DNA of 6,281 nucleotides from the IMG/VR virus record IMGVR_UViG_2541047777_000002, one strand, 5' to 3'. Each line of letters starts with the position of its first letter. Position 1 is the first letter of the stretch. Below the pieces are notes generated by a model, which saw only the letters and a list, made by a program, of their open reading frames with translations, had not been told where the DNA came from and did no database searches. Positions 2,217 through 6,135 of the stretch are shown piece after piece. Both the position numbers and the translations under genes were made by a program. This DNA is from a virus. Taxonomy: Duplodnaviria > Heunggongvirae > Uroviricota > Caudoviricetes.

Positions 2217-2243
2217 GTTGTGATAACTGTTACAGGAGATAAA

Positions 2244-2531
2244 GTGAAGAGTTTTATTTTGGTTTTATGTTTTGCCTTTTCTGCTGCGGTTTATGCCCAG
2301 GAAGATAGCATTTCTGTTATTAACTCATCAGCGGAGCTTGCATGTAAAAATAATCCCGATGCTGCATCAAAAGAATCATGCAAAGAACTGCTCCTTTCGA
2401 CGGCTGCTTTTGCTTCTGAAAATGCGAAATTTTATTCAGCCTTCTGTCGCGGCTATGTTAAGGAAGAAGATAAAGAAAAATGTGATGATGCCGGTAAGTT
2501 AGTTAGGTATTTCCACTCTCTTAATCCGTAA
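2244..2531 (+). CDS. hypothetical secreted/periplasmic small Cys-containing protein, 95-aa precursor (track start 2220 is an upstream in-frame GTG)
   Basis: Seen: GTG 2244 preceded by AGGAG (2233-2237) at 6 nt; N-terminus (M)KSFILVLCFAFSAAVYA/QE looks like a Sec signal peptide with an AxA-type cleavage site; mature part has 4 Cys; no lipobox. Stop TAA 2529-2531. Confidence 0.55.
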   Translation: MKSFILVLCFAFSAAVYAQEDSISVINSSAELACKNNPDAASKESCKELLLSTAAFASENAKFYSAFCRGYVKEEDKEKCDDAGKLVRYFHSLNP

Positions 2532-2592
2532 TGGCCTTTGATTAACGATCAACTTCTGATCACTCGTTCAAGCAAACTATAAAAACACCTGT

Positions 2593-2612
2593 CCCCGTGA
2601 CTGGTCACGGGG
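2593..2612. repeat. perfect 20-bp palindrome CCCCGTGAC-TG-GTCACGGGG
   Basis: Seen: 9-bp arms around a 2-bp centre, 62 nt after the stop of the upstream cassette and about 20 nt before a candidate -35 box. Flanked by GTTTTTAT on the minus-strand side; only a weak T-rich tract on the plus side. Function (terminator, operator or partition-type site) is not decidable from sequence. Confidence 0.5.
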
Positions 2613-2632
2613 TAAAATGTCTTTGCAAATTA

Positions 2633-2662
2633 TTGACGTGTGCGTCGTTTTGACGGTAAAGT
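2633..2662 (+). promoter_or_regulatory. candidate sigma70 promoter for the anti-immunity operon (TTGACG - 18 nt - TAAAGT)
   Basis: Seen: TTGACG at 2633-2638 and TAAAGT at 2657-2662. The -10 match is weak (4/6) and there is a second TTGACG at 2650-2655. Inference only. Confidence 0.25.
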
Positions 2663-2691
2663 TACTCCGCTGCGGCAAATTCCGCAGCCGG

Positions 2692-2715
2692 GCGTGAGAA
2701 CCCGGATAAACGAAG
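2692..2715 (+). promoter_or_regulatory. upstream copy of antisense-RNA target sites (a1 GTGAGAA 2694-2700; b1 AAACGAAG 2708-2715)
   Basis: Seen: both elements are exact reverse complements of two single-stranded segments of the downstream RNA (TTCTCAC 2828-2834; CTTCGTTT 2813-2820). The 10-mer GCGTGAGAAC (2692-2701) recurs at 2862-2871. Knowledge: phage P1 immI has a1/b1 upstream and a2/b2 downstream of c4. Confidence 0.5.
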
Positions 2716-2720
2716 CGCAC

Positions 2721-2743
2721 AACACGCGCCAGCGTGTTTTTTT
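2721..2743 (+). terminator. intrinsic-terminator-like hairpin (AACACGC-GCCA-GCGTGTT) followed by a T run
   Basis: Seen: 7-bp stem with 4-nt loop; seven consecutive T at 2737-2743, of which the first two pair in the stem. Lies between the a1/b1 elements and the structured RNA. The stem is short, so efficiency is uncertain. Confidence 0.5.
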
Positions 2744-2772
2744 GTGTGTATATACCTGCGCATATCCGATTT

Positions 2773-2855
2773 ATGGTGGCTCAGGCGGGGCTGACTTCGG
2801 TCAGGCCGGTTTCTTCGTTTGCCGGTATTCTCACCCCCGCTTGGGCTACCACCAT
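2773..2855 (+). ncRNA. c4: c4-type antisense (repressor) RNA of an immI-like anti-immunity locus; ends approximate
   Basis: Seen: 7-bp closing helix (ATGGTGG 2773-2779 with CCACCAT 2849-2855); inner helix GCGGGG 2785-2790 with CCCCGC 2835-2840; hairpin CTGAC-TTCG-GTCAG (2791-2804); hairpin CCGG(T)/(G)CCGG (2806-2825) whose loop carries CTTCGTTT; unpaired TATTCTCAC (2826-2834). Both single-stranded segments are complementary to short elements upstream and downstream. GC-rich, with no convincing ORF. Knowledge: this matches P1/P7 c4 and N15 CA RNA. Confidence 0.65.
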
Positions 2856-2861
2856 TCAAGA

Positions 2862-2901
2862 GCGTGAGAACTCTGGTGGTAGCACGACCAATTAAACGGA
2901 G
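2862..2901 (+). promoter_or_regulatory. downstream antisense target sites (a2 GTGAGAA 2864-2870; b2 AAACGGAG 2894-2901, overlapping the SD of the Icd-like ORF)
   Basis: Seen: a2 is identical to a1; b2 pairs with the RNA loop CUUCGUUU using one G-U wobble and contains GGAG 8 nt upstream of ATG 2910. Inference: pairing would occlude the ribosome-binding site. Confidence 0.6.
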
Positions 2902-2909
2902 TGCATACC

Positions 2910-3074
2910 ATGTTCAAATTCAAATTTGCGGCAGTCGTTCGCACAGACAAAAAGTCACACATCCATCATCTTTCCACCATCGCGTCATCTGAACGGGAAG
3001 CTCGTCGCCAGTTCGCCAGCCGGTTTGTCCTGGTATTGTCTGCCCGTATTCCGGTGCGCGAGGTGGCTGCATGA
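2910..3074 (+). CDS. icd: Icd-like small protein (putative cell-division inhibitor), 54 aa; not in the supplied ORF track
   Basis: Seen: ATG 2910 with GGAG 8 nt upstream; translation MFKFKFAAVVRTDKKSHIHHLSTIASSEREARRQFASRFVLVLSARIPVREVAA; stop TGA 3072-3074 overlaps ATG 3071 of the next ORF. Knowledge (from memory, not searched): resembles Icd-like proteins that follow c4 in P1-type immI loci. Confidence 0.6.
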   Translation: MFKFKFAAVVRTDKKSHIHHLSTIASSEREARRQFASRFVLVLSARIPVREVAA

Positions 3075-3304
3075 ATCAGGTAAAAATGAACACTGTTGGC
3101 CTGCTGGAATCGTTGGATGAACGTCTGGCTCAGGTCTATGCGCTCGTATCATCAGCCCATCGGACAGTCTCCAGCTGTGAGGCGTCGATTTATCTCTCAG
3201 AAGCAGGGAAACTCCTTCAAATTGCGTGTGAGTTAACACACGAAGCACAGGGATATTCAGCATCGCTCTCGTCGCAATTGCTGCACGGTAAGGAGGCTGA
3301 ATGA
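3071..3304 (+). CDS. hypothetical protein, 77 aa, within the antirepressor operon
   Basis: Seen: ATG 3071 with GAGGTGG (3060-3066) 4 nt upstream; ATGA overlap with the previous stop and with the next start at 3301. No recognised domain. Confidence 0.6.
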   Translation: MNQVKMNTVGLLESLDERLAQVYALVSSAHRTVSSCEASIYLSEAGKLLQIACELTHEAQGYSASLSSQLLHGKEAE

Positions 3305-4074
3305 GCGCGTTAGCAGTCTTTTCCTTTCAGGAAGAGCATCAGGTACGTGTAGTGATGATTAACGGCGATCCGTGGTTTGTGGCGAATGATATTTGCAATG
3401 CTTTAAGCATCCAGAATGTCACACAAGCTATCGCTCGATTAGATGAAGATGAGCGATCTATGTTTAACATAGGCCGTCAAGGTCAAGCCAATATCATCAG
3501 TGAATCAGGTCTTTACACGCTCATTCTCCGCTGCCGTGACGCTGTAAAACAGGGCACGACCGCGTGGCGTTTTCGTAAATGGGTAACGAACGAGGTCTTG
3601 CCCTCTATTCGCAAGAATGGAGAGTACGTTTACGTCGAGCCTGAGCCAATGCGAGCAGCAGAGCCGTTGAACTGGAGGCAGAAGGAGTATCTGCGAGGGC
3701 TGATTAACGATATTGCACAAAGTTTTCAATACCGAAATGCCTGGATTAGTGGTGTATGGTTGGCTTTGCGTCGGGCGTGTCGTAATCCATCCCCGAACCC
3801 CATAACGGTTGATGATTTGCCAGCAATTACGGCAGAACTGCGCCGGATTTTGACGGCTGCTGAGTCGGCATTGGGGAACATGCGCACGTATGAACGAGAG
3901 TTGTTGCGTGATGTTGTTCGTGGGGGTAGGCGGAGTATGTCGTGTGGTGATTTGCCCATCACCGATATTAACTCTGATCTGGAAAAGGCGTTACCCGCGC
4001 ATTTTGAACTGGCAGTTCAAAAACTTGAGCAGTTATCCGCGCAGCTAAAGCCAGCAGAAATCACCAATAAATAG
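3301..4074 (+). CDS. ant: phage antirepressor with N-terminal Bro-N-type domain, 257 aa
   Basis: Seen: ATG 3301 with strong SD TAAGGAGG (3289-3296). N-terminus FSFQEEHQVRVVMINGDPWFVANDICNALSI...GLYTLILRCR...FRKWVTNEVLPSIRKNGEY matches the Bro-N / antirepressor pattern (FxF, DGxxWFva-Dva, GlY-li, VLPxiRk-G) as recalled. Gene order (antisense RNA, icd-like, ant) supports the call. Confidence 0.8.
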   Translation: MSALAVFSFQEEHQVRVVMINGDPWFVANDICNALSIQNVTQAIARLDEDERSMFNIGRQGQANIISESGLYTLILRCRDAVKQGTTAWRFRKWVTNEVLPSIRKNGEYVYVEPEPMRAAEPLNWRQKEYLRGLINDIAQSFQYRNAWISGVWLALRRACRNPSPNPITVDDLPAITAELRRILTAAESALGNMRTYERELLRDVVRGGRRSMSCGDLPITDINSDLEKALPAHFELAVQKLEQLSAQLKPAEITNK

Positions 4075-4245: not shown

Positions 4246-6135
4246 TTAACCGAAATATGTCAGCCATGCTAACTGCATTGCTGACATGGGGCTGTTTGCA
4301 CTGCCGGACCACGCATAATTCTGGCCATTATAATGAAACTCAACAACGTATGAGCCATCACCAATATTTCTCACCGGCTTAAATACCGGCTTAGATACAG
4401 GCGAAGAAGGTGCAGGCGGTTGCTGTTCTTCTACGCTCTCTTCCTCTTCCTCTATCTCAATTTCGTCGTCATCCAGATCGTCATCCTCTGACAATTCATC
4501 CGCCAGTTCAGGTATTGCTTCCAGTTCTTCTTCGTCAGGCATAACGATTTCTGGAGTATCTATTTTCAGTTGCCATTGTCCGTTTTCGCCAACAAATTGC
4601 CCCAGAGCATCAGCAGCAAATTCCAGGTATCGACTAATCATTGTTGGGCTAAATTTGAACGCTCTTAGAGTGCTGTTCGTGATTTTTATAGAGGGGTCCT
4701 GCTCTACCAGCTGCTTAACTGTGTTATGCAGACGAACCCCGGCATCTCCTCTGGCGAATCCAGGCATTTCGTCATCAAGCTGCTGCAATGCTTCCAGCCT
4801 GGTATTTTCGTTTCCAGTATTTGGCCTCCATGTCTTTGAGAAGTTGGCCAGCTTGAATTGCTTATAGTGTAATTGAGTGTTTTCATCGTCATGGCCTAAA
4901 ATTTCCATAAAGAAAACATCTTCATCTACGTTTTTCCAACGAGGATCTACGCGGAAAAACATTTCATACGCAATACGGGCATAAATAGCACGACTATCTT
5001 TATAAACACGGCGGTCATCTTTGAAAAATGATTTAACCCACGGGTTAAAAGCCTTTGCTAATATGGCATTAATACGTCCGTTTTCAGAGCGTGTGTCGTT
5101 ATCTCCATAACCTTTAACGACATCATCAAAATCAGATGCTGCTGGGCATGAGCGAAGTACATTTATTAAATAAACAAATGTTTTTGCTTCGCATAATGTA
5201 TATATTTTTCTGGTTATATCATCAGAAGTTCTTTTTTTAGCTTGGCCTAAAAAATCAACGGTATACTTACCAGAAACAGTAAATGTACCTTGATACATAA
5301 TCTCAATCATTCGTCTTCCTGACAATGCAGCAAGTGCAAATGCCAAAGGAGCCATACCTGAACGAGTGTTTAGATTATTTAATGTAGCAGGGCTATTTAT
5401 AATATCGTAAATAGCTTGCATATATTTAGGGTAATCAATGACCACCACGTTACGTTTCTTATTGTGCAGAACGTCCGCCCATCGTTGCTGGATAGATGCA
5501 CGTTCGGCAGGGCTTAGTTGAAGATGATAGAGAATCTCATGGTTAACTTTTAGCTGATTCAACTCCTCAAGTAATGCAGATCCTTGCTGTAGTAATTTAT
5601 ATAAATAATCGCGCTTATCTTTCCAGTTATCGCTAGTTAAATCAGAAATGGCGAATTGCCACTCTTTATATTTATTTGATAATTTCAATAACTTATTATG
5701 ACTTTTGTTATCGCCAATTCTGATATTAGATAAATCTTCTGATAGAGGGAGAATTAATTTTAATTTTGCCTGTAAAGCTGACATTCTCTGGCGAATATCG
5801 GCAGCAGGTAGAGAAAGCCATGACAATAGCTCCTCATTATATAAAGGATACTTTTCAGATAGGCGATGTATATTTTTTTCAAAGCTATGATGAAGTTTAT
5901 CATCAAACCGTTTTCTGGCCCTGCTCATATAGGCATTGAATGTGTTGGCTGTAATTCTTTTTTCTAATCCTTTCCCCCTAAACTTTCGCTTGTCATTAAA
6001 TAATGCATTTTTAAATTTTAATGCAACAGCCTTTATTTTTTTTGTTTTCTCCCCTTGAGGACGGTCAGAGTTATCTATTGACTCAACATCGCTAACAAGT
6101 GAGTTTATTAATTCACCGATTTTTACTTTGCTCAT
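4246..6135 (-). CDS. telN: protelomerase (telomere resolvase), TelN-like, 629 aa
   Basis: Seen: intact 629-aa ORF with SD AGGAGAGG upstream of ATG (minus strand). Knowledge (from memory): long stretches (N-terminus MSKVKIGELIN..., RSGMAPLAFALA, RSENGRINAILAKAFNPWVKSFF, RRVYKDSRAIYARIAYEMFF, NTQLHYKQFKLANF) match phage N15 TelN, including a tyrosine-recombinase-like catalytic region, an acidic linker and a C-terminal domain. Confidence 0.9.
   Translation of the reverse strand: MSKVKIGELINSLVSDVESIDNSDRPQGEKTKKIKAVALKFKNALFNDKRKFRGKGLEKRITANTFNAYMSRARKRFDDKLHHSFEKNIHRLSEKYPLYNEELLSWLSLPAADIRQRMSALQAKLKLILPLSEDLSNIRIGDNKSHNKLLKLSNKYKEWQFAISDLTSDNWKDKRDYLYKLLQQGSALLEELNQLKVNHEILYHLQLSPAERASIQQRWADVLHNKKRNVVVIDYPKYMQAIYDIINSPATLNNLNTRSGMAPLAFALAALSGRRMIEIMYQGTFTVSGKYTVDFLGQAKKRTSDDITRKIYTLCEAKTFVYLINVLRSCPAASDFDDVVKGYGDNDTRSENGRINAILAKAFNPWVKSFFKDDRRVYKDSRAIYARIAYEMFFRVDPRWKNVDEDVFFMEILGHDDENTQLHYKQFKLANFSKTWRPNTGNENTRLEALQQLDDEMPGFARGDAGVRLHNTVKQLVEQDPSIKITNSTLRAFKFSPTMISRYLEFAADALGQFVGENGQWQLKIDTPEIVMPDEEELEAIPELADELSEDDDLDDDEIEIEEEEESVEEQQPPAPSSPVSKPVFKPVRNIGDGSYVVEFHYNGQNYAWSGSANSPMSAMQLAWLTYFG

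Follow-up and report, generated by a model that had tools for sequence, protein, structure and literature searches.

The locus

The window (the whole 6,281-nucleotide stretch of DNA analysed here, IMG/VR virus record IMGVR_UViG_2541047777_000002) is a region of an N15-like linear plasmid prophage and matches the stretch that adjoins telN in such prophages. The protelomerase gene lies on the minus strand (4246-6135) and the plus strand carries a run of small genes, as beside telN in N15-like prophages. Identity is 99.4% to a 46-kb E. coli plasmid and 93% to phage PhiR46_1; compared with N15 it is approximately 80% across 2520-3080, with the same gene order beside telN. On the plus strand, an icd-like ORF (2910-3074; from the ORF list, named 'Icd-like' in RefSeq), an antA-like ORF (3071-3304; from the ORF list and synteny with N15) and an antB-like ORF with a Bro-N domain (3301-4074; E = 9e-21) occupy 2910-4074 and are syntenic with N15 genes 32-30 and with the annotation notes of phiKO2. 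Judged from its sequence, the hairpin at 2721-2743 that is the subject of this study is the intrinsic terminator in the leader of an N15-type immA (anti-immunity) operon, a member of the IsrK / P4 seqA / P1 a1b1 leader family.

All elements of this leader lie on the plus strand. A promoter-like site (TTGACG, an 18-nt spacer and TAAAGT; 2633-2662) is the only sigma-70-like site that a consensus scan finds in 2400-3200; N15 and phiKO2 share it, and it is likely the equivalent of N15 Pa. The transcript would start near G2669, the position at which the Rfam isrK model begins. It opens with a 7-bp hairpin with loop CAAAUU (2669-2688), which is found in the minimum-free-energy fold and forms the first helix of the isrK and c4-a1b1 models, followed by the a1 hairpin (2689-2704), which in the fold and in the Rfam models holds the a1 box GUGAGAA (2694-2700) in its loop. 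A search for the longest contiguous complement places the b1 box, (U)AAACGAAG, at 2707-2715. Beyond the terminator hairpin lies a C4-type antisense RNA (2769-2856), matched over its full length by Rfam C4 (RF01695; 82.2 bits vs a gathering score of 45) and carrying the boxes b' (2812-2820) and a' (2828-2834); on the upstream side, Rfam c4-a1b1 (RF03163) matches 2656-2708 by a narrow margin (48.8 bits vs 46.7). The sequence and its alignment with N15 and phiKO2 then give the a2 hairpin (2858-2873, box 2863-2869) and b2, AAACGGAG (2894-2901), within which lies the ribosome-binding site (GGAG) of the icd-like ORF, 8 nt ahead of its ATG at 2910.

The a' box is complementary to a1 and pairs with a2 as well; likewise b', CUUCGUUU(G), is complementary to b1 (T2707/A2708-G2715) and pairs with b2. 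These boxes evolve in concert: a1, a' and a2 differ in step among the window, N15 and phiKO2, and b1 and b' co-vary across relatives. A two-box RNA with target pairs on both sides, the downstream one over the ribosome-binding site of the icd operon, is the arrangement of the c4/CI/CA type, and we assign the C4-type RNA as the equivalent of N15 CA RNA and P4 CI RNA. The a and b boxes differ between the window (GTGAGAA / AAACGAAG), N15 (TCTCAA-type / ACAAGAAG) and phiKO2 (GTAGGAA / CCAGTCAGC), which therefore should be heteroimmune at this locus.

The consensus scan finds no promoter-like site between 2743 and 2775, a result consistent with production of the C4-like RNA by read-through and processing of the upstream transcript, as in Gifsy-1. 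In systems of the c4/CI/CA type the small RNA is excised from the leader transcript, with RNase P acting at its 5' end. The same stretch is not conserved across the family, and a separate promoter there was rejected on both grounds. As for the folding of the precursor, a long cis fold pairs a1/b1 with a'/b'. In addition, the C4-like RNA has a closing stem whose 3' strand, GCTACCACC (2844-2852), is complementary to GGTGGTAGC (2875-2883), just after the a2 hairpin, and phiKO2 has a compensating double change in this pairing (TCACCACC with GGTGGTGA), which suggests an alternative precursor fold that may compete with the closing stem of the mature RNA.

Several further features surround the leader. 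A 75-codon ORF with a GTG start (2640-2867, plus strand) overlies the leader, the terminator and the C4-like RNA and has no Pfam match; its counterpart is called 'ash family protein' in RefSeq records of close relatives, and N15 gp32/cA or P4 'cI gene product' in older records. It is probably a spurious CDS over RNA elements, in which case the RefSeq label is wrong. Just upstream of the locus, a 103-aa ORF (2220-2531, plus strand) has a signal-peptide-like N terminus and no Pfam match; the matching region of PhiR46_1 bears the feature 'Spackle', although the assignment of this name to the ORF is uncertain. Finally, the leader promoter is closely preceded by a perfect palindrome, CCCCGTGAC-TG-GTCACGGGG (2593-2612), which hardly varies in N15 and phiKO2. 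No T run follows it on the plus strand, and it could mark where the upstream operon ends or serve as a protein-binding site.

A terminator hairpin after b1

The preliminary description placed a hairpin followed by a T run directly after b1, and its coordinates are right (stem 2721-2738, T run 2737-2743). On the plus strand, A2721-C2727 pairs with G2732-T2738 in a G+C-rich stem of 7 bp, with four G-C pairs and the loop GCCA (2728-2731), and seven U follow (2737-2743), the sequence pattern of an intrinsic terminator. The consensus scan of 2400-3200 lists this hairpin among its terminator-like sites, with six overlapping calls vs 0.8 expected from shuffles. The hairpin alone folds at approximately -10 kcal/mol and the whole 75-nt leader at -28.7 kcal/mol (z = -2.1).

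Homology agrees with the fold. Rfam isrK (RF01394) matches 2669-2742 with 68.1 bits vs a gathering score of 50 (E = 1.9e-13), and it does so over the full model (positions 1-77): the two 5' hairpins, the linker, the terminator hairpin and the U tail are all present, and the terminal hairpin and U tail of the model align to the 2721-2743 hairpin. The equivalent hairpin is labelled 'putative rho-indep. transcription terminator' in the N15 record and 'terminator' in the phiKO2 record. The identity proposed earlier for the hairpin is borne out by this full-length match and these annotations; with the consensus scan, folding and the covariation described below, they support a terminator homologous to the Rho-independent terminator that ends the Salmonella IsrK RNA. 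The block AGCGCACAACACGCGCC(A/T)GCGTGTTTTTTTGTGTGT is shared unchanged by the window, N15 and phiKO2, whose a and b boxes differ, and the terminator region thus appears to be under selection of its own. This invariance within the N15 group means that the window's own lineage gives no covariation. We also considered a terminator serving a minus-strand gene, and rejected it: the minus-strand calls are the complement of the alternative helix described below and lack a proper T run, and the ORF list contains no minus-strand gene running into the hairpin.

An alternative helix, exclusive with the terminator

As the preliminary description stated, b1 ends at G2715, the start of a GCGC (2715-2718) that recurs at 2726-2729. 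Folding and family conservation indicate that the two copies can form an alternative hairpin (2715-2729, plus strand; G2715-C2718 : G2726-C2729, 7-nt loop), which takes the top two bases of the terminator 5' arm together with two loop bases; in the window, this helix and the terminator (2721-2738) are mutually exclusive. Its energy is -5.7 kcal/mol vs approximately -10 for the terminator, and when the nascent 3' region is folded the alternative helix is the minimum-energy fold for chain ends 2729-2736.

We sampled the family by two pattern scans of IMG/VR with a motif of the first hairpin and a1 stem, which gave approximately 240 loci. Of the 134 leaders recovered, 115 distinct ones, left after removal of unrelated matches and duplicates, have a simple hairpin and then a run of five or more T; the other 19 are mostly unrelated pattern matches. 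In an Rfam check of 11 diverse loci, every one had isrK and/or c4-a1b1 just upstream of C4.

The 4-bp alternative pairing, called speculative in the preliminary description, proves to be a family trait. A helix worth at least four G-C pairs over the terminator 5' arm or loop is carried by 99% of the 115 leaders, compared with 18 +/- 4% after shuffling of the upstream bases. A contiguous helix of at least four pairs is found in all of the first 68 distinct loci with a C4-like hairpin, where it connects the sequence immediately beyond b1 with the top of the terminator 5' arm and the loop. Its sequence varies: the 115 leaders hold 26 distinct versions, among them GGCG:CGCC (P4 type), GCGC:GCGC (N15 type, including the window), AGCGC:GCGCT, TGCGG:CCGCA (P1/P7), GGCGG:CCGCC, GAGCGC:GCGCTC, GGAGC:GCTCT and GGCGT:ACGCC. 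Pairing is stronger between cognate than between non-cognate partners (the observed mean is reached in 3 of 5000 permutations), by a margin (-6.6 vs -6.1 kcal/mol, with an equal fraction of terminator tops sequestered) that is small because most variants are G/C permutations that cross-pair. The main signal is a conserved, largely G+C-rich complementarity well beyond base composition (-6.6 vs -3.0 kcal/mol after shuffling). In folds of the whole nascent segment, the alternative helix belongs to the minimum-energy structure at 58 of 115 loci, the number being limited because other pairings in the variable b1 region competed; this count was set aside.

The balance between the two helices differs from leader to leader. 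Over the 115 leaders the alternative helix averages -6.7 and the terminator -7.9 kcal/mol; the helix comes within 2 kcal/mol of the terminator in 75 leaders and equals or exceeds it in stability in 28, the Pseudomonas phage type (L084/L126) being one example. In such leaders the terminator should rarely form unless the helix is removed. Taken together, the comparison of leader sequences indicates that an alternative helix exclusive with the terminator is conserved, with compensating variation, across the family.

Overlap with the antisense target

Across the family, the pairing of b1 with b' (7-11 pairs) extends into the 5' strand of the alternative helix, with an overlap of 1-4 nt, most often 2 nt, in 67 of 68 loci. 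Given that the alternative helix overlaps the 3' end of b1, antisense pairing would be expected to free the terminator. Folding models with b1 blocked are in line with this expectation, as the nascent structure then averages -1.2 kcal/mol, compared with -6.6 when b1 is free. With b1 blocked in the window, the alternative helix is worth -2.4 kcal/mol instead of -5.7, and the terminator is the preferred fold from 2734 on, 3 nt earlier than otherwise. The structural features of an antisense attenuator are therefore in place, namely mutually exclusive helices and an antisense site that overlaps the pre-emptive strand, by 1 nt in the window. That single nucleotide is G2715, the last base of b1 and the first of the alternative helix, and the window and its N15 relatives represent the weakest type of alternative helix, with 4 bp and a 1-nt overlap; for this reason, termination here may be largely constitutive.

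An outer helix in read-through transcripts

The segment 2715-2721 has a second possible partner. Folding and covariation point to an outer helix in which GCGCACA (2715-2721) pairs with UGUGUGU (2743-2749, plus strand), three of the pairs being G-U. This helix encloses the terminator hairpin, turns the U run into an internal loop and can form only in read-through RNA; in the window, terminator and outer helix together reach -17.3 kcal/mol.

Covariation was counted for the terminator and outer helices in a MAFFT alignment of 67 distinct leaders; the alternative helix was not counted by column, as the alignment shifts N15-type and P4-type leaders by one column relative to each other. Over the 67 leaders, 81% of cells in the two helices are paired vs 69% in shuffles, and the covariation score is 0.325 vs 0.144, a value that none of 500 shuffles reaches (slid controls score at most 0.109). 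Changes on both sides are seen for six of seven outer pairs and five of seven terminator pairs. When cognate and non-cognate energies of the outer helix are compared, none of 5000 permutations reaches the observed mean. Examples are GCGACA/TGTCGC in P4, CGGACA/TGTCCG in P7 and GCTGAC/GTCAGC in L058, one of the sampled loci. To our knowledge, and within the literature that we read, the outer helix and the family-wide pre-emptive helix over b1 are new; the hairpin itself is already known and the idea of its regulation has been voiced before.

Comparison with known systems

Among the closest known systems is Gifsy-1 IsrK/STnc1160, which like the window has a promoter-adjoining leader with two hairpins and a terminator, and an antirepressor-type operon downstream. 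Gifsy-1 is, however, a lambdoid prophage with orf45-anrP, where the window has icd-antA-antB, and the alternative and outer helices are absent from the Rfam isrK structure. Transcription in Gifsy-1 either stops at a Rho-independent terminator, which yields the short IsrK, or in part continues beyond it; processing of the longer transcript gives the C4-like STnc1160, and deletion of the isrK promoter abolishes this RNA (Hershko-Shalev et al., 2016; PMC4825925). The demonstrated role of the short RNA is activation in trans: IsrK raises translation of the read-through mRNA more than 100-fold and a transcriptional fusion 8-fold (PMC4825925). Regulated termination at isrK was suggested by the same authors, although constitutive STnc1160 made IsrK toxicity stronger, not weaker (PMC4825925). 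They also describe P4 CI RNA as causing premature termination through seqA and seqC (PMC4825925), which agrees with the preliminary description, where this RNA was likewise said to act by termination.

IsrK has been equated with P4 seqA in the literature, and C4 with P4 CI RNA; seqA is essential for establishing P4 lysogeny. As in the window, the P4 seqA is followed by a hairpin (GACGCG-CCA-CGCGTC) and seven T, and both isrK and C4 match P4. Its alternative helix is GGCG:CGCC, with a 2-nt overlap with b1, and P4 has approximately 100 more bases than the window between the terminator and the RNA. The P4 CI-dependent terminator, as mapped, is Rho-dependent, lies downstream of cI and is other than the seqA hairpin. 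The P4 a box and its RNA partner (GTGAGAA / TTCTCAC) are identical to those of the window (2694-2700 and 2828-2834), whereas the b box differs, and partial cross-talk between the window prophage and P4-type satellites is conceivable from these matches. A literature search on N15 CA RNA, over the papers available to it, gave no matches.

For P1 and P7, the published mechanism is a translational block at a2/b2. The immI region of these phages (RF01695, RF03163) has the same order of elements as the window, with a1, b1, c4 RNA, a2 and b2 (Citron and Schuster, 1990). The interval between b1 and c4 in P7 likewise holds an alternative helix (TGCGG:CCGCA), a hairpin with a T run and an outer helix (CGGACA:TGTCCG). 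Unlike in the window, the promoter is under the C1 operator, the hairpin is longer and contains an internal loop, and the T run is broken by an A. Mutations close to the c4 binding site are mentioned in the P1vir papers, with no positions bearing on the terminator. A terminator hairpin in the equivalent place is found in a Pseudomonas phage as well.

Induced termination by a small RNA has precedents in pT181, pIP501 and pAMbeta1, where an antisense RNA blocks an upstream helix that pre-empts the terminator. The logic that we propose for the window is alike: a small RNA acts on the nascent leader and a pre-emptive helix is prevented. The RNAs themselves differ, those of the pT181 type being encoded on the opposite strand and fully complementary, whereas the RNA of the window is a processed downstream part of the same strand and the same transcript, makes contact by two short boxes and would also regulate its own synthesis.

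Proposed regulation of the terminator

In the reading that best accounts for these observations, the leader is a terminator that the C4-like RNA switches by means of the pre-emptive helix; we consider the evidence for and against it about evenly balanced. The sequence comparison establishes the anatomy, the homology, and the conservation and overlap of the structures; the direction and size of the small-RNA effect are inferred. Transcripts from approximately 2669 expose a1 in a hairpin loop, then b1, then the 2715-2721 segment with its choice of partners. As the chain grows, this segment would first pair with 2726-2729 and delay nucleation of the terminator, and some polymerases would then read through to produce the C4-like RNA precursor and the icd/ant mRNA. 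Once plentiful, mature C4-like RNA would kiss the a1 loop and zip onto b1; since G2715 is common to b1 and the alternative helix, the latter would then fail, the terminator would form in time, transcription would stop at approximately 2742-2744 and a 74-nt a1/b1 RNA would be released. Because the C4-like RNA would be made only by read-through, the result would be negative feedback on its own synthesis. Termination would be a first layer of operon repression, and a2/b2, at the ribosome-binding site of the 2910 ORF, would catch the transcripts that escape. After read-through, 2715-2721 would re-pair with 2743-2749 and lock the terminator hairpin in a long stem, while the released 74-nt RNA could titrate the C4-like RNA, as IsrK does.

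There are arguments against such a switch. The RNA would have to bind within the approximately 30-45 nt transcribed between a1/b1 and the U run, which needs fast pairing, high concentration or a pause. By analogy with Gifsy-1, the stronger IsrK toxicity seen with constitutive STnc1160 would also speak against it. So would the weak form of the alternative helix in the window and, in P4, the mapping of the CI-dependent terminator to a Rho-dependent site downstream of cI. Extended to the family, the reading becomes more tentative, and we hold it as somewhat less than an even bet that the a1/b1 leaders of P1, P4, N15, Gifsy-1 and many uncultured phages are RNA-sensing attenuators. The immunity RNA would act in trans to displace the antiterminator helix on the leader of its own precursor and thereby switch the terminator on; it would be kept at a set level, each termination event would free an a1/b1 decoy that titrates it, and the outer helix would reset the leader in escaped transcripts.

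The main alternative is a constitutive, leaky terminator that makes a short a1/b1 RNA acting as a decoy or activator in trans, as IsrK does. The C4-like RNA would then have no effect on termination, and the alternative helix would only set a fixed ratio of short to long transcripts. The window itself lends weight to this idea, as its alternative helix falls far short of the terminator in stability and shares a mere 1 nt with b1; so does Gifsy-1, where the short IsrK ending at the homologous terminator is an activator in trans of read-through mRNA translation (>100-fold), and where the STnc1160 co-expression result misfits regulated termination. A constitutive terminator nevertheless leaves unexplained why b1 and the 5' strand of the alternative helix adjoin or overlap in 67 of 68 loci, and why 28 leaders have a helix at least as stable as the terminator. 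We see it as rather unlikely to be the whole answer, bearing in mind that constitutive termination and the switch are compatible and not mutually exclusive.

The remaining alternatives fit the data less well than either of these. The nested helices might mainly be a processing or stability module of the precursor, with termination incidental, for example as a nuclease site that splits a1/b1 from the C4 precursor or as a clamp that brings a1/b1 to a'/b' in cis. The outer helix, which forms only after read-through and yet covaries strongly, would suit such a module, as would the processed isrK-orf45' and STnc1160 seen in Gifsy-1 and the long cis fold of a1/b1 with a'/b'. Processing needs no T run, however, and a run of at least five T is kept in the 115 leaders; moreover, a short RNA ending at the terminator is observed in Salmonella, and we regard a pure processing role as improbable. 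Regulation in the opposite direction or by another factor, with C4-like RNA pairing or Hfq at the U tail lowering termination, is very improbable: IsrK is listed as an Hfq-binding RNA in its Rfam description and constitutive STnc1160 enhanced the downstream Gifsy-1 phenotype, but we found no structure in which occupancy of a1/b1 disfavours the terminator, blocking b1 favours it in folding and P4 CI RNA is described as promoting termination.

Significance for phage immunity

The upstream target copy (a1/b1, seqA) is conserved in a very widespread immunity family of phages and satellites, in which only the downstream copy has a clear mechanism; we know of no settled role for the upstream copy since c4 was described in 1990. 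If the RNA-switched terminator is correct, it would give the upstream copy a function and account for the need for both target copies in establishing immunity. The circuit would be a compact, self-measuring one, in which an RNA made by read-through limits in trans its own read-through. The comparative data give the exact bases to mutate and show heteroimmune relatives retaining the proposed switch with changed specificity boxes, a property that could aid the design of orthogonal RNA-controlled terminators.

Other observations at the sampled loci

Some true members of the family (L076, L138, L182 and L243) have the two 5' hairpins and a hairpin like the alternative helix, without a clear T run behind the hairpin that comes next; they may be natural variants without intrinsic termination. 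RNA matches unrelated to the leader were also seen at two of the scanned loci: an RT-15 RNA (L135, 5856-6047, minus strand; 173 bits) and a type II hammerhead ribozyme (L132, 7644-7710, minus strand; 65.6 bits).
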